38,615 nucleotides of DNA from a virus. The notes under the pieces were generated by a model. That model made no database searches. It saw only the letters and a list, made by a program, of their open reading frames with translations, and was not told the origin of the DNA. Positions 3,327 through 34,742 of the stretch are shown here, in pieces; position 1 is the first letter of the stretch, and every line of letters begins with the position of its first letter. The position numbers and the translations under genes were made by a program. The stretch lies in the UHGV virus genome UHGV-0210052; one strand, given 5' to 3'.

Positions 3327-3371
3327 GGGTAAAAAGTGGATAAAATAATTTTACCCACCGGATTTTTACCC
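3327..3371. repeat. GGGTAAAA motif cluster abutting int start codon
   Basis: GGGTAAAAA at 3327-3335 direct; TTTTACCC at 3349-3356 and 3364-3371 inverted; last copy ends 1 nt before int ATG. Confidence 0.45.
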
Positions 3372-4529
3372 ATGCTCACCGTTAAGCAGATTGAAGCAGC
3401 AAAGCCGAAAGAAAAACCATACCGCCTACTCGATGGTAATGGCCTGTACCTTTATGTCCCTGTATCAGGGAAAAAGGTATGGCAGCTTCGCTACAAGATT
3501 GACGGTAAGGAGAAAATCCTGACTGTCGGAAAATATCCGCTTATGACTTTGCAGGAAGCAAGGGATAAGGCATGGACTGCGAGGAAAGACATCTCGGTTG
3601 GCATCGATCCGGTAAAGGCGAAAAAGTCTTCGTCTAGCAACAATTCATTTAGTGCGATTTACAAGGAATGGTACGAGCACAAGAAGCAAGTCTGGTCAGT
3701 AGGCTATGCAACTGAACTTGCCAAAATGTTTGATGACGACATTTTACCCATCATCGGCGGTCTTGAGATTCAGGATATTGAGCCGATGCAACTGCTGGAA
3801 GTAATCCGCAGATTTGAAGATCGCGGTGCAATGGAGCGAGCCAACAAAGCCCGCAGAAGATGCGGCGAGGTTTTTCGTTACGCTATTGTCACTGGTAGGG
3901 CTAAATATAACCCGGCACCTGACCTTGCTGACGCCATGAAGGGATACCGCAAGAAGAACTTCCCGTTTTTACCTGCCGACCAGATCCCGGCATTCAACAA
4001 AGCACTTGCAACATTTTCAGGAAGTATCGTATCGCTCATTGCGACCAAAGTTTTACGCTACACAGCCCTAAGAACGAAAGAGCTTCGTTCCATGCAATGG
4101 AAGAACGTCGATTTTGAAAACAGGATTATCACCATCGACGCCAGTGTGATGAAGGGACGCAAAATTCATGTTGTCCCGATGTCAGACCAGGTGGTTGAAC
4201 TTCTCACTACGCTAAGCTCAATCACTAAACCAGTATCAGAGTTTGTTTTTGCCGGGCGCAACGATAAGAAAAAGCCAATCTGCGAGAACGCGGTATTGCT
4301 TGTGATCAAACAAATCGGCTATGAGGGTCTGGAAAGCGGTCACGGATTCAGGCATGAATTCAGCACGATTATGAACGAGCACGAATGGCCTGCTGACGCT
4401 ATTGAAGTGCAACTTGCACATGCCAACGGCGGATCTGTGCGCGGGATTTACAACCATGCTCAGTATCTAGATAAGCGCAGAGAAATGATGCAGTGGTGGG
4501 CTGACTGGATTGATGAAAAGGTGGAGTGA
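3372..4529 (+). CDS. intS: tyrosine integrase, IntS (CPS-53/KplE1) type, 385 aa
   Basis: From MLTVKQIEAAKPKEK the protein matches K-12 IntS as recalled; C-terminal R...HGFRH...Y catalytic motifs; track GTG 3336 start rejected. Confidence 0.9.
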   Translation: MLTVKQIEAAKPKEKPYRLLDGNGLYLYVPVSGKKVWQLRYKIDGKEKILTVGKYPLMTLQEARDKAWTARKDISVGIDPVKAKKSSSSNNSFSAIYKEWYEHKKQVWSVGYATELAKMFDDDILPIIGGLEIQDIEPMQLLEVIRRFEDRGAMERANKARRRCGEVFRYAIVTGRAKYNPAPDLADAMKGYRKKNFPFLPADQIPAFNKALATFSGSIVSLIATKVLRYTALRTKELRSMQWKNVDFENRIITIDASVMKGRKIHVVPMSDQVVELLTTLSSITKPVSEFVFAGRNDKKKPICENAVLLVIKQIGYEGLESGHGFRHEFSTIMNEHEWPADAIEVQLAHANGGSVRGIYNHAQYLDKRREMMQWWADWIDEKVE

Positions 4530-4713
4530 TCGATCTTAACCACTATCGGATAGTACAAAGCTTTGTGTGCCTCGTTCATGCCTCACATTACCTGGCAATC
4601 ATCAAATTCACCAGAACGTTCATAAATCGTCTTTGTGATCTGCTTCACTGTTAGACGTAATACTTTTTGCAGTTATTTTATAATCATAGAAATGCTCATC
4701 ATGAGCAGTGAGT

Positions 4714-4744
4714 TGGTGATCTGCGCTGGTAGCCCTGCTATAAT
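4714..4744 (+). promoter_or_regulatory. candidate promoter for acyltransferase gene
   Basis: TATAAT at 4739-4744 with TTGGTG at 4714-4719 (19 bp spacer, suboptimal). Confidence 0.3.
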
Positions 4745-4762
4745 CCTTTGAAATTTTATCTC

Positions 4763-5902
4763 ATGGTGTGCATTATGATCTTTGAGGCGCAAAGTCTTTA
4801 TTTATATTTTTTGTCTCTTTTAGCCGTTGTGTTATGTATTACACTATTGACACGATATAACTATTTTTCTCACATCAACTTTGCAAGTAACAGGTATTTC
4901 TTTATAGACGGATTGCGTGGGATAGCTGCGTTCAGCGTTCTTATTAATCACGGCGCTCATACAATTATTACCAATGGAGTTCAGCCCATATTTATAGACT
5001 TCACAAAATACTCCATCACAGGGAATATGGGTAGCTTCGGTGTACAGATTTTCTTTTGCATTACAGGATTTTTGTTCTTTGATAAATTAATAAAAGGAAA
5101 TAATACATTTGACTGGAATAAATTTTATGTTGCTCGGATAAAAAGACTCGTTCCTCTATATATGCTTACTGCGCTTTTGGTGGCAATTTTAGCTATTATA
5201 TTATCCGGCAGTTCAGCAAGGCTTAACTTTGTTGATTTTTCAAGCTTCCTAAATTTTTTTGGGTTTGGATTTTTGGGCACAGAAATCTTCATTGGCTCTT
5301 TTAACGCATCAGGATTAAATGCGGTGATATGGACTCTACCGTATGAATGGAGGTTTTATTTAATTTTCCCTCTATTATCGATTGCCATCGCAAGCAAGAG
5401 ATATGGTATGTTTGCCATTTCCGCAGTAATGTTACTTGCGGCAAGAGACTTTATGACAGAATTTGTTTTGTGGCCATATTTTATAGTTGGCGCCTTAGGT
5501 GCATATATATTCAATAAATCTTATGTTAACATTGATGATAAATATTGGATATTCTCATTCATTTCTTTCATAGCTATTTTTGTTATCTTCTGCTCTTCCG
5601 CAGACAGCTATGGACGAATCAGATTTGCATGCATTTCATTACTATTTATAATGGTACTTATAACTAAACCAAAAATATTTAAAATAAAATCATTAGTTTA
5701 TTTAGGTGAGGCAAGTTATAGTCTTTATTTGCTGCATTTGCCTATCATGGCTATAGTAATGAGAACAATAAATAATTTCTATAACCTATCGAGCATGTCT
5801 ACTGTGAATTACACAATTTTGATAGCCTTTATTGCATCTCTGTGTAGCGTTATTTCCTGTATCTGTTTTAAGAATTTTGAGTGGAGATTCATTAAAAAGT
5901 AA
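4763..5902 (+). CDS. membrane acyltransferase family 3 (OafA/Oac-like), candidate O-antigen acetyltransferase
   Basis: Multi-TM protein with R...FIDGLRGIAAFSVLINHG acyltransferase_3 motif; very AT-rich versus flanks; start uncertain (track TTG 4748, ATG 4763 or 4775). Confidence 0.75.
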   Translation: MVCIMIFEAQSLYLYFLSLLAVVLCITLLTRYNYFSHINFASNRYFFIDGLRGIAAFSVLINHGAHTIITNGVQPIFIDFTKYSITGNMGSFGVQIFFCITGFLFFDKLIKGNNTFDWNKFYVARIKRLVPLYMLTALLVAILAIILSGSSARLNFVDFSSFLNFFGFGFLGTEIFIGSFNASGLNAVIWTLPYEWRFYLIFPLLSIAIASKRYGMFAISAVMLLAARDFMTEFVLWPYFIVGALGAYIFNKSYVNIDDKYWIFSFISFIAIFVIFCSSADSYGRIRFACISLLFIMVLITKPKIFKIKSLVYLGEASYSLYLLHLPIMAIVMRTINNFYNLSSMSTVNYTILIAFIASLCSVISCICFKNFEWRFIKK

Positions 5903-5906
5903 CATT

Positions 5907-5933
5907 GCGGGGCGATGGCCCCGCTTGATTTCC
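5907..5933. terminator. bidirectional terminator between acyltransferase and tailspike
   Basis: GCGGGGC-GATG-GCCCCGC 7 bp GC-rich hairpin with T-rich tracts on both sides. Confidence 0.6.
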
Positions 5934-5934
5934 G

Positions 5935-8133
5935 CTACGCTATATTAAGATTACCATATGTATTGTTTCCAAGACCATACCATGCCCAGTTTGTTCCTGA
6001 TGCAGGAGTACCTGCATTGTGAATCATATCGCCTATATTTATCAGCACTTTCCCAGGGTATGTTGTAGTAGGAGCAGTGTCTATTCCAGCAGACACATCG
6101 GCAAAACGCCAACCACAGGAAACCATATCTGCGTTATCTCTAAATTTCTTAATTGAAAACGTGTATCTGTTTCCTCTATATATCATTCCAGCAAAACTAG
6201 GCCAGTCAATAAGTTGATTTACTGGTGAGTTTAAAGTGTTACTAAACTCATTATTTTCAATAACTGGTTCATCGATACGCACACCCGAAGTTGATACTAG
6301 ATATGTAGAATCAAAGTCGTTGTCAGAAATAATTGGAGCATAACCACCAATTTCACAACCTGTATTGCCATGAACAAAATATGACTTATTCCCTCGGTAT
6401 ATAGATTTTCTCCATGTGGGCATTGTTACTTTTACGGCATCAGTTCTATCAAACTGGTTGTTTTCAATCACAAGTCCATAACAATATGCAGACATCTGAG
6501 TTTCAGCATAATCATTTATGGCATAACCACCGCCTTTAAATGTATTTTTTGTTATTTTAATTCCATTGAATGATGTTGAGTAGTCATTACTACCATTCCA
6601 GATAATTAGAATATGAGATGAAAATGTGCCATCCTCGTTCTGATCCCCAATGCTTATATTGCTATCAATAACAACATTCTGCGCTGCAACACCGTTAGAT
6701 TCACCTCCTATCTCAACGAATATTCCTTGTCCTGTTTTGATGTTATTCGATATAACTGCACCACCAGTCACCCCCCAAGGAGTAATCCTAGACTGAATAC
6801 TTATAGGGCTTATAAAGTGATTTCTTTCTGCAATTAAATATTTTGTTCTTGCTGAGCACGCAAAATCTTCACCAAAAGTATGCCATTTTCTGCCTGTTCT
6901 GTACGTTTGGCAGTCAATCATCTTAGCAATTCCATTAAGATTTTTAGTGAAAAATGTATAATTTGTTACCAAATCAGTCCTTACATTGCTAAGAGTTATA
7001 TCCTCATTTGGTATAGCACCGTCACCATCAGCATCTGCCATTACAAAGATTCTTGCAGCCAATACGTCAATATCATTAATAGATCCACTACTCCCCTCAA
7101 GTGCGAAACCAAACCAATTCTCTTGAGGGGTAAACGTGGTATCTGAAGGTCCAGTTGAAAAATTTGTGCATGACTGGTTTAACTTTATACCATTAAATTT
7201 AAAGTTTTTGCAGTTGAATAAACCAAAGCAAACACGCTCAGCCTCACCATTTCCATCTGTATTTATATTTACATCATTATCTGCGTAAACAAATAAATTA
7301 TTTTTACCATTAATTACAATTGCTGTTTTACGTATAACACCTGCAGAGTCATGATATTGCTGGCTGATTTGGTAATTAAACTTTATCTCACCGGCGCTAA
7401 AACGTATTGCTCTAACACCACCAAATTTTGATATACAAGCGTTAACCGATGCCGTTGAATCATGCACTCCGTTAATATCATGTCCAGCCCAAACTGTATG
7501 TATGCCATCGAGCACACAATTCGAACGGATCCAGCAACCAGAGCCACCACCATCACTCTCACCAGTTCCCGCAAGGAAAGCAGCGAGCTCAGCATACGAA
7601 CCATCCCACGGAACTGTGGGGCTAAATATGGTGATACCGTTGTGCTGAGATTTAGGCATGCTGGCATCCCAGTAAAACTGCCCGCCGCCAAAGTTGGTTC
7701 CTGGTACGTATCCAATTACATTTAATGTGTGATTCCCAGCAGGCTCGCTCATTAAGGTATGGATGTCAGGAACATTCTCCATTCGCTGGCTAAACTGATC
7801 GGGATCATACTTCAGCACATTGGGAAAATAGAACTGCTGCGAACCATACGCATCATATACAGCCATGGAATGGCCTTGCACAGTTACGAACTTGGCAATC
7901 TGTCCGTTATATACCGGATATCCGGCAGCGTTAATGATTATTGGTTGCGAAACAGGAACGTGAGAGCCGTCTTCGTTCTCTATATAAACCTGAATCTGGT
8001 TTTCTGAATTTACGGGGTCAGCGTCAATTTTACCGATATAAATTTTACCATTGGCAACTGCTTTAAAAGAACGCGCCATAGTGAAGAGTTGCGAAGGCAT
8101 GCTTACCACAACATTTGCGGTGATATCTGACAT
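5935..8133 (-). CDS. tailspike protein, P22-like head-binding N-terminus plus distinct receptor-binding domain, 732 aa
   Basis: [37 protein letters not shown] matches P22 gp9 N-terminal domain as recalled; GGAG SD before ATG 8133; track start 8181 rejected. Confidence 0.9.
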
Positions 8134-15569: not shown

Positions 15570-16031
15570 TCACGTACTCGGATCATCTTTCTCGATGTAA
15601 AACCGATTCCACGTAAACGCGCTTTTGTTACCACTACCGCGAGGCATGTCATTTCGCCGCTCAAGTGGTGGTATTTTGGTTAAAGCGATACAGATTGTTT
15701 GATATGCACTGTCAGCAGCGGTAAGGAGAGCGTCTGACGGCTGAATGACGTTATCCATGCACACTTGCACAGCGAGTTTCAAAGCGACGCCATCATTTGC
15801 CCATGTAGGGATACCTGAATCATCGTCAGGTAACGGCATGATGCCGTTTTCTGTATCAGCAAACTGATACCCAAGCTCGATACCTTTCGCCTGCCATGCT
15901 GCCATCATGTCTTCGAGGTCATTAATGGCATCTTCAATTGCCTGAGGGTCAGCATCTGTCAACGTGGCATTGGAATACAACCCGGCTTTTCGCAAAGCCT
16001 TTAGAACGAGATCACCCTTCGTTTTTGCCAT
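15570..16031 (-). CDS. head-tail adaptor, P22 gp4-like, 153 aa
   Basis: Synteny between coat-proximal genes and gp10-like gene. Confidence 0.55.
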   Translation of the reverse strand: MAKTKGDLVLKALRKAGLYSNATLTDADPQAIEDAINDLEDMMAAWQAKGIELGYQFADTENGIMPLPDDDSGIPTWANDGVALKLAVQVCMDNVIQPSDALLTAADSAYQTICIALTKIPPLERRNDMPRGSGNKSAFTWNRFYIEKDDPST

Positions 16032-16200
16032 CTTCTTCCGCCTTAGCCACTTTTTGCTTCGTTGCGGTTTCTTCAGGAGTTTTTACCCAACCTTTTTTCA
16101 GGTGAGATTTAACTTCTTCGTCATCAACAATGACGTAATCGACAGCAAACTGACCACAGGTGATCATGTTGCCAGGCTTATAGAGCATTGTTCGTGCCAT
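16012..16200 (-). CDS. small hypothetical protein, 62 aa
   Basis: ATG 16200 preceded by GGAG SD; lies just after the coat terminator; track start 16239 rejected. Confidence 0.4.
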   Translation of the reverse strand: MARTMLYKPGNMITCGQFAVDYVIVDDEEVKSHLKKGWVKTPEETATKQKVAKAEEDGKNEG

Positions 16201-16211
16201 TGTCTTCTCCC

Positions 16212-16234
16212 AATAAAAATGGGGCCGAAGCCCC
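16212..16234 (-). terminator. rho-independent terminator after coat gene
   Basis: On - strand GGGGCUUCGGCCCC hairpin followed by AUUUUUAUU. Confidence 0.6.
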
Positions 16235-16241
16235 ACCAAAA

Positions 16242-17495
16242 TTACTGCCCGGCAATAACGATGCCCGTATATTCAGGAACAAGTACAGAGCAACCGTACA
16301 GAGTGGTGAAACGAGCAGTGGTTACGCCTTTGATGTGGTCGAAGGCGTAAGACATGATCAGCGTAGCGCCCTGCTCGGTGGTTGCTGTCATTACCTGTGG
16401 ACCCTGACCAGTCGGGAACGCCAGTTTGCCGTACATCAGCTCAACAGAACCATCAGCCCAGAACAGGTTAGCCGGTGCGGCATTTTTGTTGAGAATGGTA
16501 ATTGCTGCACCATTTGCCGCGTTAGCATCAACGTTTGCATATGGTCGGCTGGCGACATCCGCGTTGTCAGGCGGCAGAATTTTCGGGGAGATAGTTACTG
16601 TCGTTCCGCTTACTGCCAGAACGCGGAATACCTGCGGCTGCCCGGTGGTATCTTTGGTGATCTGGTGTACAGAATTCACCCCTGCAATGGTAAACGCATC
16701 GCCAACCTGCAAACCTTCAGCAGATACCGTAATGGTCCCCTGTCGGTTATCCACTGGCATATCGTTAGCATCTTTCGCTTCAACCTTGTGCGCAGGTGCT
16801 GCTGCCAGCGTAATGGAAGTTGCTGTACCCTTCGGAACACGACCAGAAATATCGGTCTTGTAGCTATCGAAGGACGCAACCGGAGGGATCTGCGCTTTTT
16901 CGTATGCTGTCAGGGTTGCGCCCTGAGCATAGGCACGGTGACCAAGCTCGCCAGCAAGGTCTTTGTAGTTGAAGGGGTTCCAGAAAGAGCGACGGTTGAT
17001 ACCCTGAGGTACACCAATCGCCGTCATGGTGGCATCAATACCTGCCGCACAGTTCCACAAATCACGGCCCTGTGAACCTGTGGTTGAGTCACCCATCGTG
17101 ATCACGTTAGTAGCACGCTGCGTGACCATGGAAATCAGGTCAGAGTCAATCTGTGCAGCAAGGCGCATACCTGCGGCTCGACCAGCTTCAGTTTTATGTT
17201 CCGGGTCACGCATTTCACGCGCATCCAGAGTGTACAGAATGTTTTTCGGCTCCTTGAACACAGAAGGAACAAGGCGCTGAACCAGTGCTGTAGGCGTTTT
17301 GCCGCTGAGATCGAGGCCTTCTTCAATGTTCATGTGGTAATGCTGCGGACGATACAGAACATCACCTGCTCGCTGCATTGCGGTATCACCGGGACGGAAT
17401 TTTTTAGCGTTACGGGAAACTACGCAGGCGGCCTCAAAGCCTTCAACGTAGTTTTCGAACATGATTTCAAGGTCTTTTGCTAATTGGTTAGCCAT
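16242..17495 (-). CDS. major capsid (coat) protein, P22 gp5-like, 417 aa
   Basis: Size, position after scaffold gene, terminator immediately downstream. Confidence 0.85.
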   Translation of the reverse strand: MANQLAKDLEIMFENYVEGFEAACVVSRNAKKFRPGDTAMQRAGDVLYRPQHYHMNIEEGLDLSGKTPTALVQRLVPSVFKEPKNILYTLDAREMRDPEHKTEAGRAAGMRLAAQIDSDLISMVTQRATNVITMGDSTTGSQGRDLWNCAAGIDATMTAIGVPQGINRRSFWNPFNYKDLAGELGHRAYAQGATLTAYEKAQIPPVASFDSYKTDISGRVPKGTATSITLAAAPAHKVEAKDANDMPVDNRQGTITVSAEGLQVGDAFTIAGVNSVHQITKDTTGQPQVFRVLAVSGTTVTISPKILPPDNADVASRPYANVDANAANGAAITILNKNAAPANLFWADGSVELMYGKLAFPTGQGPQVMTATTEQGATLIMSYAFDHIKGVTTARFTTLYGCSVLVPEYTGIVIAGQ

Positions 17496-17513: not shown

Positions 17514-18407
17514 TTATTTTTTTGCCTTTTTAGCGGCGAAATACGGCGTCCAGTCACCAGTTTCCAGCGCCTTGGCTTTCAGTTTGTCGAGGTTATTGAT
17601 TACTGCGCCGTTGCTCCCCTTAACTGTCGGGGTTGTGGCTGCCGTGGTTTTTGCTTTTGGCATGATTCTGGCCTTCGATTCGATACGTTCCAGCAGACGA
17701 CCAATTGCTACGGGGTTGGTAGCTTCTGCCAGTTGCTTGCGCAGTTCAGCGTTGCGACCGAGCGCCAGAACAACGATTTCCGGCTTCTCTGACTCAAACA
17801 GGATCGCGTTTTGTGTCTCGATGGGAATTTCCTCGAGTACGGCCTGCTCAGCTTCCTGATAGCCAGGAACTTTGAGAGCCTTAACACGTTGCTGATATTT
17901 GGATAATCGCTCTTGATAGGCAGCCTGAAGCTCCTGCTCCTTCTGCTTGCGAGCCATCTCCTGTTGCTGGTACTTGCCGTTATCCTCTGCCCACTTAGCC
18001 ATGCGTTGCTGGTAGATTTCTTCATCGAAACCGATGTCCTCATCATCCAGTTTTGGCATTCGCGGTGGGTGAGTGATTACCGGCTGCTGCTCGACGGGTT
18101 TCTGAGACTGACGCATCAGCTCTTTCAGCTCGCGGTCTTTCTCTTTAATCGTCTTGCGCAGGTGTTTTACCAGTCCATGCTCAGCGCCATCTTCGCTGGT
18201 TGGCGAATCCAGCTTTTCGTCACCAAAGTAGAATTCCTGTTCTGATTCGTCGTCATCAGTTTCAGTAGCTTCCTCTGCATCATTGCCGGAGGACTCACTG
18301 CCATCTTCTGTTTCGACTTCTTCAGCCAGTTCGACATCATCAGGAATCTGCTCTGACGCGTCGGTTTCGATTTCAACTTCTGGTGTGTTTTCTGCCATCT
18401 GGTCCAT
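17514..18407 (-). CDS. scaffolding protein, P22 gp8-like, 297 aa
   Basis: Highly acidic N-terminus, charged helical protein between portal and coat. Confidence 0.8.
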   Translation of the reverse strand: MDQMAENTPEVEIETDASEQIPDDVELAEEVETEDGSESSGNDAEEATETDDDESEQEFYFGDEKLDSPTSEDGAEHGLVKHLRKTIKEKDRELKELMRQSQKPVEQQPVITHPPRMPKLDDEDIGFDEEIYQQRMAKWAEDNGKYQQQEMARKQKEQELQAAYQERLSKYQQRVKALKVPGYQEAEQAVLEEIPIETQNAILFESEKPEIVVLALGRNAELRKQLAEATNPVAIGRLLERIESKARIMPKAKTTAATTPTVKGSNGAVINNLDKLKAKALETGDWTPYFAAKKAKK

Positions 18408-27403: not shown

Positions 27404-28125
27404 TAAGCAGCCTCCCCTGTTACTTTCAGCATTCCGTTATCGTGCAGCTTTCTGGTCAGCCACTGTTGACCACGCCCGGTGATTTTTGTGGTGAACGATA
27501 TCTGTATTCCGTGATTTGTGTTGACCGCTGTTTCTTTCACTGTGAAATAGCCGCGATCCATATATTCCTGCATTGGCACATTTCGCCGGGAACCTGAAGC
27601 AATAAGGATTTTGTGATCGCGCATCCACGCAAACAGTTTGTTTGGACCAATTCCAACAACCTTTGCAAAGTTTCCAATCAAAATTCCGCTGGCCTCGCCA
27701 ACGCGATCGGCAAACTCAACTTTAGGTGCGGCAATTGCGAGCTGGTTTTCCAGTTGCATTTTCTGCTCAGCAAGATCAGCAGCAAGGCGCAACGCTTCTG
27801 GTAGCGTTTTGGGGATATTAACCGCAGTTTCCTCAAGCTCTCGCCAACGGTCAACAAGACGAGCGGTGAATTCCGGCGACAACTGAGCGACGACAATAAT
27901 GCTGTCTCGCTTACCTTGTTCGCCCTCAAAAACGTAAGCCTCTACGCCACGAAGTAATCCTAAGTTATTGATTTTTTCGAAAACCACCATTGGGGGATTT
28001 CGGATCACACCTCGAGCCGCCAGTCGTTCAATAGATTGTTTCACCTTGTCATGACGACTTCCCACCAACTCAGCGATTTCAATGCTTGTCATTTTGATGG
28101 AATTGCCATTTATTAACTCATTCAT
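27403..28125 (-). CDS. putative antirepressor (Rha/AntA-like N-terminus, KilAC-like C-terminus), 240 aa
   Basis: N-terminal TSIEIAELVGSRHDKVKQSIERL DNA-binding-like segment; family assignment from motif memory. Confidence 0.6.
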   Translation of the reverse strand: MNELINGNSIKMTSIEIAELVGSRHDKVKQSIERLAARGVIRNPPMVVFEKINNLGLLRGVEAYVFEGEQGKRDSIIVVAQLSPEFTARLVDRWRELEETAVNIPKTLPEALRLAADLAEQKMQLENQLAIAAPKVEFADRVGEASGILIGNFAKVVGIGPNKLFAWMRDHKILIASGSRRNVPMQEYMDRGYFTVKETAVNTNHGIQISFTTKITGRGQQWLTRKLHDNGMLKVTGEAA

Positions 28126-28288
28126 CGTCTTCTTCCTCGTACATTGAGCTGTTCGGATCGCTCATCAGTTCTGCGCAGCAGTGCTCACACATGTGAACTT
28201 CCAGCACATGCAGCTTCTGACCGCAGTTAGCGCACGTTAAAGCTCGCTCGACGCTTTCTTGTTCGTAACTTCGATTTTGGTCAATCAC
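28118..28288 (-). CDS. ninF: NinF-like small Cys-rich protein, 56 aa
   Basis: Manual translation gives (V)[55 protein letters not shown], matching lambda NinF as recalled; GTG start overlaps ninE stop. Confidence 0.55.
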
Positions 28289-28467
28289 CTTGTTTTCCTC
28301 GCACGTTCTCTAAGCCACCGGATATCCCACAGGTGAGCCGTGTAGTTGAAGGTTTTTACGTCAGATTCTTTTGGGATTGGCTTGCGTTTATTTCTGGAGC
28401 GTTTCGTTGGAATGTATTTGCAGTTTTCGCAGATGATGTCGGTGAAACTTCGTCGCTGTCGCCTCAT
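28285..28467 (-). CDS. ninE: NinE-like protein, 60 aa
   Basis: [27 protein letters not shown]... matches lambda NinE as recalled; track start 28557 would overlap the methylase. Confidence 0.7.
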
Positions 28468-28991
28468 GCCGCCCTCCTGACGCCCTGCCCGATCGCCATC
28501 AATGCCGCTTTGGATACGGTAGTAAACATCCGTCGAGGACTGATGAACGGTCGCCAAATCAGCAGCATGGAGCCTTTGCTGTTTCCCTTCTTCTCCAGCC
28601 CTGTCGATGGTTCGATAAAATTAATCCGTCCATCAGTGATAATGCGAACTTCGTCGACACTCTCCAGAGCCTTGCTGAACCATCCGACTGACATATCCTC
28701 TGGCACAAGCATAACTACCGTCTGTCGCTGTTGTATGCACTGCTCAGCGGCTTTTTCCACCCACGGCCTGATATTGCTGTACGGTGGGTTATTCCAGATT
28801 GCACCGTGGCTTATCCACTCAGAATTTAGCGCGTCGTCGGCCTCAGTTAACCAGTGAGCGCACAGAGCATTTTTGTCGCTCGCTGCCGAATCCAGCCAGA
28901 ATCCAAACTCAATATCCAGTGCATCAAAAAGCCAAAGCGGCGTTTGCCAGCAGTCCTTGTCGTGTGCCGGCGTATTTGATTTGATAGTCAT
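28464..28991 (-). CDS. phage Dam-family N6-adenine DNA methyltransferase, 175 aa
   Basis: [10 protein letters not shown] and NPPYS motifs; ATG 28991 has GGAG SD and overlaps ninB stop (ATGA). Confidence 0.7.
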
Positions 28992-29431
28992 GCAGCCCGA
29001 TCTCCCCATCGCGCTTTCCATTCGAGAGCCAGTCGCGCTTCGTCTGACCACTTAACGCCACGCTCTGTCCCGAATGCCTGTATAAGCTCTAATAGCTCAG
29101 CAAATTCGCTTACACGCATCCTGCTGGTTGACTGGCCTATTACCACAAAGCCATTCCCGGCAAGGTTAGGAACAACATCCTGCTGCTTTAATGCTGCGGT
29201 AAACACACACTTCCAGCTTTCTGCATCCAGCCAGCGACCATGCCATTCAACCTGACGAGAGACGTCACCTAAGCAGGCCCATAGCTTCCTGTTTTGGTCT
29301 AAGCTGCGGTTGCGTTCCTGAATGGTTACTACGATTGGTTTGGTTGGGTCTGGAAGAATTTGCTGGATAGCTTGAATGGCGTTCTGCTGATGGATGGGGC
29401 TTCTTAGTTCAAACGTTAGTTTCCTCACCAT
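28988..29431 (-). CDS. ninB: NinB recombination protein, 147 aa
   Basis: Near-identical to lambda NinB as recalled (IVVTIQERNRSLDQNRKLWACLGDVSRQVEWHGRWLDAESWKC). Confidence 0.85.
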   Translation of the reverse strand: MVRKLTFELRSPIHQQNAIQAIQQILPDPTKPIVVTIQERNRSLDQNRKLWACLGDVSRQVEWHGRWLDAESWKCVFTAALKQQDVVPNLAGNGFVVIGQSTSRMRVSEFAELLELIQAFGTERGVKWSDEARLALEWKARWGDRAA

Positions 29432-29573
29432 TTACGCTCCTGTAATCGTCAAGTGCAGCTGCAATAGTCCCTATCGGGTCATGGTCTTGCCCGATAATCT
29501 CATTTACGTTTTCATCTTCTTCCACACCGAAAAAGAATCGCAGGGCTAACATGATTTCTTCGTATGCGCTCAT
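29409..29573 (-). CDS. small hypothetical protein, 54 aa
   Basis: ATG 29573 with AAGGAG SD 7 nt upstream; track start 29621 rejected. Confidence 0.45.
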   Translation of the reverse strand: MSAYEEIMLALRFFFGVEEDENVNEIIGQDHDPIGTIAAALDDYRSVNGEETNV

Positions 29574-29575
29574 AC

Positions 29576-29842
29576 TCACTCCTTCACTTTGACTCCAGCA
29601 GCGCGAATCCGTCCTTCGCATTCACTAATTGCGTCGTTATAACCAAATGTGACCCCATCCTCGAAATCGGTAGAAAATGCCTCACGCTCTCTTTTTCCAG
29701 GACACTCAATCTCGATAGCTGCTCGCGATGCCTGCCACGCTTGCCAATACATCTCAACCATATTGGCGTATATTTTATTTTTAGGATCACATCCGGTGTA
29801 ATTTTCAAACCATTCTTCAAACTGCTTTCTTGATTCGTCCAT
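29576..29842 (-). CDS. hypothetical nin-region protein, 88 aa
   Basis: Intact ORF in co-directional nin gene block. Confidence 0.5.
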   Translation of the reverse strand: MDESRKQFEEWFENYTGCDPKNKIYANMVEMYWQAWQASRAAIEIECPGKREREAFSTDFEDGVTFGYNDAISECEGRIRAAGVKVKE

Positions 29843-29853
29843 ATCAATCCCCG

Positions 29854-30054
29854 TTATGACAGGTTAATTTTCACCCAACCCTTCCCACGCACATTTGCAA
29901 CAAGCCCTTTCTTTCTCAGGTATTGCATACGGCGATCGATGGTTTCGATATACATTCCATTGCTCCGCCATTTAAGCCAGATATCAAAAACAGGTGTTGG
30001 TCTTTCACTCAGCATTGAAAGAATGTTTTGATCTAATTTTTCGTACTTGCTCAC
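29854..30054 (-). CDS. hypothetical protein, 66 aa
   Basis: Intact ORF; basic C-terminus; coupled to upstream gene. Confidence 0.5.
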   Translation of the reverse strand: MSKYEKLDQNILSMLSERPTPVFDIWLKWRSNGMYIETIDRRMQYLRKKGLVANVRGKGWVKINLS

Positions 30055-30377
30055 AAATACCCTCTCTCACTTAATCGCGCCCACGCTTCGTTAAACTCTT
30101 CTCGAGTTGCGCCGGATTTTCTTTCTTCAAACATCATGCATTCGCTGATGTCTCCCCATGACTTTGATCGCTTTTCAGCGAACAGATCATCCCATTCGAA
30201 TACCCAGCGGCCTGATTTTCGGTAGTGGTAAATGGTCAGCCATGTTGTGCTGTTCGCTGGATACCCATAGAGAACTTCGACTTTTTGATCACGGTCTTTA
30301 TGCTTTTTCAGCAGGATAAAGCCAGCAACCAGCGAAGCTCCGGCAAGAATGATGATTGGAATTTGCCAGTCAGCCAC
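30051..30377 (-). CDS. hypothetical membrane-anchored protein, 108 aa
   Basis: GTG start; N-terminal TM helix IPIIILAGASLVAGFILL. Confidence 0.5.
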   Translation of the reverse strand: MADWQIPIIILAGASLVAGFILLKKHKDRDQKVEVLYGYPANSTTWLTIYHYRKSGRWVFEWDDLFAEKRSKSWGDISECMMFEERKSGATREEFNEAWARLSERGYL

Positions 30378-30391
30378 ACTTCCCTCTCCCC

Positions 30392-30424
30392 CAAATAAAA
30401 AGGCCTGCGATTACCAGCAGGCCT
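30392..30424 (-). terminator. tR2-like terminator after helicase gene
   Basis: Perfect 8 bp stem AGGCCTGC/GCAGGCCT with 8 nt loop, followed on - strand by UUUUUAUUU. Confidence 0.55.
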
Positions 30425-33639: not shown

Positions 33640-34356
33640 ATGGAAAATAAAAAATCACTGACGACAGAACAGCTCGAAGACGCTAAGCGGCTTAAGGCTT
33701 TGTATGAGTCAAAAAAGAAAGAATTGGGAATAACCCAATACTCAATCGCTGATGAACTGGGTATCACCCAAGGAGCGGTAGGGCATTATCTTAATGGCAG
33801 AAACGCGCTAAACGTTGAGGTTGCATCTGGTTTTGCACGATTGTTGCAAGTCTCAATTGCTGATTTTAGCCAGTCAATTGCTGCCAAGGTTGCAGAACAG
33901 GCAGAAAGCCTTAAGAGCGATGCCAACGTAAGGTATGCAGGGGAATACAGAGCAGGAAAGAGGTATCCGGTGTTAAGCAGTATCCAGGCTGGCTCGTGGT
34001 GTGAAGCATGCGAACCATACACCATTAAAGACATAGATGTTTGGCTTGAGTCTGACGCGCATATTCAAGGTAATGCGTTTTGGCTTAAAGTGGAAGGTGA
34101 TTCAATGACGGCACCGGTTGGGTTAAGCATTCCAGAGGGAACATTCGTTCTTTTCGATACCGGAAGGGAGGCGATCAACGGCAGCTTGGTCATAGCAAAA
34201 CTTTCTGACTCTAACGAAGCAACATTCAAGAAGCTGATAATCGACGGCGGAAATAAATACCTCAAGGGACTTAATCCTGCATGGCCTCTCGTGCCAATCA
34301 ATGGAAACTGCAAGATTATAGGCGTTGCAATTGAGACAAAACTAAGGCTGGTTTGA
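33640..34356 (+). CDS. cI: CI repressor (HTH N-terminus, LexA-like S24 C-terminus), 238 aa
   Basis: LTTEQLEDAKRLKALYESKKKELG, Ser/Lys dyad context (EGDSM ... FKKL); resembles lambda CI as recalled. Confidence 0.9.
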   Translation: MENKKSLTTEQLEDAKRLKALYESKKKELGITQYSIADELGITQGAVGHYLNGRNALNVEVASGFARLLQVSIADFSQSIAAKVAEQAESLKSDANVRYAGEYRAGKRYPVLSSIQAGSWCEACEPYTIKDIDVWLESDAHIQGNAFWLKVEGDSMTAPVGLSIPEGTFVLFDTGREAINGSLVIAKLSDSNEATFKKLIIDGGNKYLKGLNPAWPLVPINGNCKIIGVAIETKLRLV

Positions 34357-34373
34357 TCACGCAAGGGGCGATT

Positions 34374-34742
34374 ATGGTTGGAACCGCTATAGCAAGCTTT
34401 TTTGGGATGTTGGCAATCTCGACAATTTACGGCTTAGCGCATGCTTTTATTGCGAAATCTCTATCAGAAAAAATAAGCCAGGCTTGGGCGCATAGATCAG
34501 CTCGTTTCATGATTCTTGTGATCATAGCAATACAAGGGATATCTGCATTTATCCTCTATGGATCAAGCTTATACCTATTGTATCAAGGCGCGACATTTAC
34601 GCCTTACACCAGTGATTACGGAACTCTATACGATGGTAGTGAAGACATCACTGTGGCTTGGATCGTCTTTGGTTTATCTATGGCCGTGTCTGTTGTAGCA
34701 GACATCATTAAGGTAATTCTCGTCTTAACCTTCGCTGACTAA
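34374..34742 (+). CDS. small multi-TM membrane protein co-transcribed with cI, 122 aa
   Basis: ATG 34374 with AAGGGG SD; starts 18 nt after cI stop; three predicted TM helices; no motif recognised. Confidence 0.5.
   Translation: MVGTAIASFFGMLAISTIYGLAHAFIAKSLSEKISQAWAHRSARFMILVIIAIQGISAFILYGSSLYLLYQGATFTPYTSDYGTLYDGSEDITVAWIVFGLSMAVSVVADIIKVILVLTFAD

Follow-up and report, generated by a model that had tools for sequence, protein, structure and literature searches.

The closest described relative of the gene analysed here is M.EcoVT2Dam of prophage VT2-Sa, whose target is given as known, 5'-GATC-3', after Radlinska & Bujnicki 2001 in one source (PMC6602927), and Dam-like GATC methylation by VT-2 is reported as demonstrated in another, from Radlinska's group (PMC7139368). 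The GATC specificity of M.EcoVT2Dam is taken throughout from these papers, which cite the 2001 study. The enzymes of phages HP1 and T1 are likewise cited as Dam methyltransferases, and the lactococcal M.Phi93DAM was assigned the modification Gm6ATC by SMRT sequencing, with DpnI/DpnII digests in which the DNA was protected from DpnII (PMC4190342). Homology to cellular Dam is stated to be confined to the enzymes of T2 and T4 (PMC7139368). Among lambdoid phages, the copy in Phi24B has already been named 'dam' (PMC3342100), and 4-nt overlaps between genes have long been recognised as a general trait of the nin regions of lambdoid phages (PMC8022706).

The window, meaning the whole 38,615-nt stretch of DNA analysed here (UHGV virus genome UHGV-0210052), is a P22-like/HK620-like lambdoid mosaic, and carries a gene of this kind on its minus strand, between ninB and ninE. 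The gene is already known, is extremely common, and its specificity is known; both the literature and standard annotation pipelines already cover the gene itself, the family to which it belongs, its status as an orphan, its location within the nin region and the GATC target.

Reading frame and conserved motifs

An initial annotation, made from the sequence, had placed an orphan phage Dam-family adenine methyltransferase gene within the nin region. The interval it had assigned corresponds exactly to a real open reading frame on the minus strand that encodes 175 aa (Table 1), with an ATG start codon at 28991-28989 and a TGA stop codon at 28466-28464. The start is preceded, at a distance of 10 nt, by a Shine-Dalgarno-like GGGGAG that lies within the 3' end of ninB. 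A longer reading of 195 aa, from a GTG at 29051, was dropped, as the family profiles and the homologues start at the ATG at 28991, and this ATG has a Shine-Dalgarno sequence of its own. A GATC site at 28999-29002 overlaps the GGGGAG element, which is probably a coincidence.

Both motifs that had been named for the methylase are present, one at residues 13-22 and the other, NPPYS, at residues 68-72. The protein was aligned with about 22 enterobacterial homologues (identity 60-98%), and separately with the VT2-Sakai, T1, HP1 and phi93 enzymes. Across the enterobacterial set, T17/P18, L33/D34 and NPPY are invariant and D13/W15 nearly so, and D13, W15, T17 and P18 are identical in the window, VT2-Sakai, T1, HP1 and phi93 enzymes. 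Disruption of the catalytic motifs was looked for on alignment, as the initial annotation had suggested, and NPPY (motif IV), DxWxTP and LD were all found intact. The NPPY of dam is the sole (D/N/S)PP(Y/F/W) motif among the long open reading frames of the window. By its position, the motif-I-like segment LDSAAS is a putative AdoMet-binding loop; the AlphaFold model has low confidence at this putative cofactor loop (pLDDT < 50, residues 34-40). The product is a compact single-domain methyltransferase fold, of a length within the family range of about 140-240 aa, with a catalytic core that spans nearly the entire chain and with no separate target-recognition domain.

Table 1. Coordinates of features discussed in the text, in the window unless VT2-Sakai is named.
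Feature	Position	Strand	Basis or remark
dam, 175-aa orphan N6-adenine DNA methyltransferase	28464..28991 (stop codon included)	-	ORF and translation
DxWxTP motif, N-terminal (DCWQTP, residues 13-18)	28938..28955	-	alignments
LDSAAS, motif-I-like (residues 33-38)	28878..28895	-	L33 and D34 invariant in both alignments
NPPY, catalytic motif IV (residues 68-71)	28779..28790	-	invariant in all alignments
Shine-Dalgarno-like GGGGAG of dam	29002..29007	-	sequence context
ninB (orf-family recombination mediator)	28988..29431	-	PF05772, E 2.4e-54; phrog_72
ninE	28285..28467	-	PF05322, E 8.9e-42
AGGAGG Shine-Dalgarno of ninE, 5 nt before ATG, within dam 3' end	28473-28478	-	sequence context
tR2-like intrinsic terminator, between P and nin genes	30393..30424	-	terminator scan
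int	3336-4529	+	
Acyl_transf_3 gene (O-antigen-modification type)	4748-5902	+	
VT2-Sakai nin146 (ninB)	15892-16437		
VT2-Sakai orf32	16434-16961		
VT2-Sakai nin60 (ninE)	16958-17140		

Operon context and transcription

On the minus strand the genes run in the order cII, O, helicase P, a hairpin, four small open reading frames, ninB, dam, ninE and ninF, followed by a Roi/Ant-like protein, YbcO, RusA, NinH and Q. The stop codon of ninB (TGA, 28990-28988) and the ATG of dam overlap in GCTGCATGACT, and the stop codon of dam and the ATG of ninE (28467-28465) overlap in GGCGGCATGAGG, so that the two overlaps described in the initial annotation were both seen, each a 4-nt ATGA. Its description of the gene as tightly coupled holds as far as these overlaps go, but not as a special link to ninB or ninE, since 7 of the 13 gene junctions inspected between P and Q are 4-nt ATGA/GTGA overlaps; being generic to the nin operon, the coupling tells nothing specific about dam and ninB. 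Co-expression with recombination genes, also proposed there, agrees with the operon context, in which dam is co-transcribed with ninB/orf and rusA. A GATC site inside dam (28491-28494) precedes the Shine-Dalgarno sequence of ninE by about 13 nt and the ninE ATG by about 24 nt, again probably by coincidence.

The hairpin between P and the nin genes is G+C-rich (30424-30401) and is followed by a T-run. The segment around it (window 30454-30378) shares 97.4% identity with lambda 40566-40642, the ren-ninB spacer, in which the tR2 terminator of lambda lies. Since dam lies downstream of this tR2-like terminator, it is placed among the N-dependent delayed-early genes and is probably a delayed-early lytic gene. 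A crude consensus scan found no sigma-70-like promoter inside the nin region. The four small open reading frames between the tR2-like terminator and ninB (108, 66, 88 and 70 aa; 29409-30377, minus strand) occupy the position of lambda ren/ninA, and no Pfam or PADLOC family was found for any of them.

Family assignment and orphan status

A profile search, which the initial annotation had recommended for assigning the subfamily, placed the product in PF05869, 'DNA N-6-adenine-methyltransferase (Dam)' (E 8.3e-65; 218 bits, with the cut-off at 28.1; aligned over positions 1-167 of the 169 in the profile), and in the NCBIfam equivalog TIGR01712, 'phage N-6-adenine-methyltransferase' (264.2 bits against a cut-off of 97.05, positions 1-165 of 165), in both cases far over the curated cut-offs. 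The product also matches phrog_111, 'DNA methyltransferase' (E 8.6e-88). Its best PADLOC matches are to 'orphan methyltransferase' models (E 4.8e-19 and 4.5e-17), and PADLOC type II methyltransferase models gave weak partial matches only. A sequence search of the PDB returned no solved homologue, the best hits (E 0.18 and 0.72) being spurious.

The absence of an adjacent restriction endonuclease was borne out, the flanking reading frames being NinB (PF05772) and NinE (PF05322), and with these neighbours and the profile matches the description of the gene as an orphan phage N6-adenine methyltransferase stands. No restriction-endonuclease-like gene was found among 29 window reading frames searched against Pfam and 10 searched against PADLOC, and no partner endonuclease or defence gene was found with Pfam and PADLOC among the unannotated small reading frames near dam. 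The dam locus has no endonuclease partner and is not a type II restriction-modification system. Annotations of E. coli genomes and of phages show dam with the same neighbours, NinB and NinE.

In five database proteins (P0001, P0005, P0011, P0013 and P0023; 209-240 aa), the Dam domain is fused to NinE, CII, RusA or NinB. These fusions are most likely not genuine, and come from draft assemblies in which a frameshift or a wrongly called start has joined two genes at an ATGA overlap.

Near-identity to M.EcoVT2Dam and the target site

The window protein is identical to the product of VT2-Sakai orf32 at 174 of 175 residues (99.4%), with one conservative change, I60V, and an open reading frame of phage Nil2 encodes a protein 100% identical to that of the window. 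VT2-Sakai orf32 is of the same length as the window gene, and also lies between ninB and ninE with 4-nt overlaps on either side (Table 1). In the 60.9-kb VT2-Sakai genome it is the sole methylase-like annotation, and a genome-wide scan found it to be the sole reading frame of useful length with a (D/N/S)PP(Y/F/W) motif. As the sole methylase-like reading frame in VT2-Sakai, orf32 was equated by elimination with the REBASE entry M.EcoVT2Dam. M.EcoVT2Dam sits in an Stx phage, whereas the window is a mosaic of a different type; orthologues are found under other names, such as 'dam' of Phi24B and gp62 of HK97.

The target sequence had been called unknown in the initial annotation, a statement that is incorrect, since the product is nearly identical to M.EcoVT2Dam, an enzyme reported to produce Gm6ATC in the sources cited above, and since GATC is reported across the family. 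By this near-identity, the window enzyme is predicted with high confidence to methylate the GATC adenine at N6, with AdoMet as the methyl donor; for the exact allele of the window, GATC activity is likewise expected from sequence.

Comparison with other GATC methylases

T1 Dam, HP1 orf13 and M.Phi93DAM all matched PF05869 in the profile search and are 32-36% identical to the window protein. The four enzymes have in common D13, W15, T17, P18, L33, D34, N41 and NPPY (numbered as in the window protein), and those of T1, HP1 and phi93 are orphans, as is the window enzyme, all three being reported as Dam or GATC enzymes. Compared with the window enzyme, T1 Dam is longer by 48 aa at the N terminus and contains an internal insertion, and the phi93 enzyme lacks the C-terminal 40 aa of the window protein. 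Gene context also differs, the T1 gene being in a replication module, the HP1 gene at the end of the early operon and the phi93 gene in a packaging module.

The relationship to cellular Dam is of another kind. The window product had no match to PF02086 (MethyltransfD12) at E <= 0.01, and thus falls outside classical Dam; by structural alignment it is 5-9% identical to E. coli Dam, T4 Dam and DpnM (PF02086, alpha class), and it is far smaller than these and has no separate target-recognition domain. Since it does not match PF02086, the window enzyme is regarded as an analogue, not a homologue, of E. coli Dam. The label 'Dam-family' is therefore apt in the sense of PF05869, which Pfam names 'Dam', but not in the sense of the E. 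coli/T4 Dam family, with which there is no sequence-level match.

Exchange with lambda ninC-ninD and distribution

The region was compared with lambda over window positions 28123-29422 and lambda positions 40650-42434. Over ninB (lambda 40650-41084) DNA identity is 94.3%, and over ninE (lambda 42097 onward) it is 95.9%. Homology stops at the ninB stop codon (window 28988, lambda 41084) and restarts 7 nt into ninE (window 28460, lambda 42097). Because homology breaks at the gene boundaries, dam is taken to be an alternative cassette to lambda ninC-ninD, which fill the same slot, exactly the ninB-ninE interval. The content of the lambda slot is unrelated, consisting of Nin290 and Nin57, with no methyltransferase. 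The swap of dam for ninC/ninD illustrates cleanly how mosaic exchange takes place at gene borders.

Of 5426 complete E. coli genomes, 1566 contain the 528-bp dam gene at >= 95% identity, and at least 1540 contain it intact at that identity. In the E. coli records listed, dam is annotated as 'phage N-6-adenine-methyltransferase', with NinB and NinE on either side. A protein search gave 244 phage records with a copy >= 95% identical and 1901 records with a homologue, and the gene is present in hundreds of lambdoid phages. Conservation on this scale is taken as a sign of selection on the gene. The locus matches those of HK140, HK97 (gp61-gp64), 434, Sf6, SfI, the mEp phages and many Stx phages. 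Many temperate enterobacterial phages carry a second, non-homologous GATC methylase, though their hosts have Dam.

Proposed function and alternatives

The intact gene, its family, its conserved motifs, its near-identity to M.EcoVT2Dam and its operon context were observed directly in this analysis, and very probably have a joint explanation, namely that dam is an orphan GATC methylase of the M.EcoVT2Dam type, carried in an N-dependent nin cassette, that probably boosts the GATC methylation of phage DNA. In the proposed mechanism, dam would be transcribed from pR after N-mediated read-through of the tR2-like terminator, and would be translated, as its neighbours are, by termination-reinitiation coupling. 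The enzyme would act with AdoMet on adenine within GATC, which is also the site of host Dam. Methylation by host Dam is incomplete in the virion DNA of P22, lambda and L, with replication possibly faster than modification (PMC8022706); rapidly replicating phage DNA may likewise be left partly methylated by host Dam, and the phage enzyme would complete it. Fully methylated progeny genomes would be protected from methylation-sensitive GATC cutters of the MboI/DpnII type, and completed methylation would shorten the hemimethylated state recognised by MutH and SeqA.

The biological role is accordingly proposed, in terms of this mechanism, as raising the GATC methylation of replicating phage DNA, and protection of progeny from restriction is suggested by analogy with the lactococcal homologue and DpnII. 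As a candidate role, the anti-restriction or epigenetic function put forward in the initial annotation is plausible. In Dam+ hosts the activity of the phage enzyme is indistinguishable from that of host Dam (PMC6602927), and dam may therefore be redundant.

A distinctly less probable reading is that the enzyme is mainly an epigenetic regulator in the lysogen, where it would supplement host Dam and so keep lysogeny stable or regulate genes of the prophage or the host. The orthologue in Phi24B (CDS 17559-18086), whose protein is 100% identical to that of VT2-Sakai, came up when lysogen cultures were screened for phage products, and the authors of the screen propose that it supplements host Dam, on which stable lysogeny of 933W depends (PMC3342100). 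The O-antigen-type acyltransferase gene of the window, moreover, is preceded by a GATC cluster and could be Dam-regulated. Spontaneously induced cells always occur in lysogen cultures, however, and expression of the Phi24B dam shifted significantly upon induction (PMC3342100). In addition, host Dam already covers about 99.9% of chromosomal GATC sites (PMC6602927). The window gene lies beyond the tR2-like terminator in the pR operon, with no promoter-like site in the nin region, and should therefore be cI-repressed in a stable lysogen; a lysogeny role of the Phi24B type fits poorly with this operon position, and we regard it as unlikely.

Specificity that is other than strictly GATC, or relaxed, as in some small prophage adenine methyltransferases, is very improbable. 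At 175 aa and with no recognisable target-recognition domain, the enzyme would be a candidate for such behaviour, and non-specific E. coli prophage adenine methyltransferases do exist, for example M.EcoGII (PMC5778455), with M.EcoGI/GII entered as 'nonspecific' elsewhere (PMC6602927). Against this, the window protein shares 99.4% identity with an enzyme whose reported specificity is GATC, and the T1, HP1 and phi93 enzymes, at 32-36% identity, are all reported as Dam/GATC, the phi93 target having been established by SMRT sequencing and DpnI/DpnII digests; the named non-specific enzymes, in turn, are not reported as members of the PF05869 family. That dam is a decaying, non-functional prophage passenger, or methylates a substrate other than DNA, is hardly credible: host Dam makes the gene redundant in E. 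coli, lambda can grow without its nin-region genes (PMC8022706) and the window appears to be an E. coli W prophage, but the frame is intact and full-length, all family-invariant residues are kept, including NPPY, the start has a Shine-Dalgarno sequence, >= 95% identity is kept in about 1500 genomes and in the active phages HK97, 434, Sf6 and Stx phages, and a homologue, M.Phi93DAM, is demonstrably active on DNA (PMC4190342).

GATC sites and the wider prophage

GATC is under-represented in the window, with 94 sites and an observed/expected ratio of 0.63 when the expectation is taken from base composition and of 0.47 under a Markov model, a depletion that would leave less need for methylation-based protection. 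Site density is 2.43 per kb in the window, 2.76 in VT2-Sakai, 2.23 in HP1 and 4.81 in T1. P22 is not known to carry a phage dam gene of the PF05869 type. Phage L has 73 GATC sites and P22 has 62 (PMC8022706), about 1.5-1.8 per kb. Across the window, VT2-Sakai, HP1, T1, L and P22, no clear relation was found between GATC depletion and the presence of a phage dam gene.

Five GATC sites (4528, 4532, 4637, 4718 and 4777) cluster between int and the start of the acyltransferase gene, two of them in the common context GTGATCTGC, and the cluster is followed by a 1.9-kb stretch with no GATC. The arrangement is reminiscent of the Dam/OxyR phase-variable control region of P22 gtrABC, the likeness being drawn from the GATC sites. 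The acyltransferase cassette (4570-5950, between int and the tailspike gene) had no close counterpart among 50,697 phage records and was found in only 5 of 5426 complete E. coli genomes, 100% identical in each; of these carriers, two are E. coli W records, two bear the label DH5alpha and one is strain B-766. From this distribution the window is probably a P22-like prophage of E. coli W.

Exclusion or defence genes are frequent in lambdoid prophages at the site after cI. In the window, a 129-aa open reading frame (34353-34742, plus strand) lies directly downstream of cI (33640-34356) and overlaps its end. It had no Pfam or PADLOC family, and it contains four GATC sites in about 170 bp (34495-34661).
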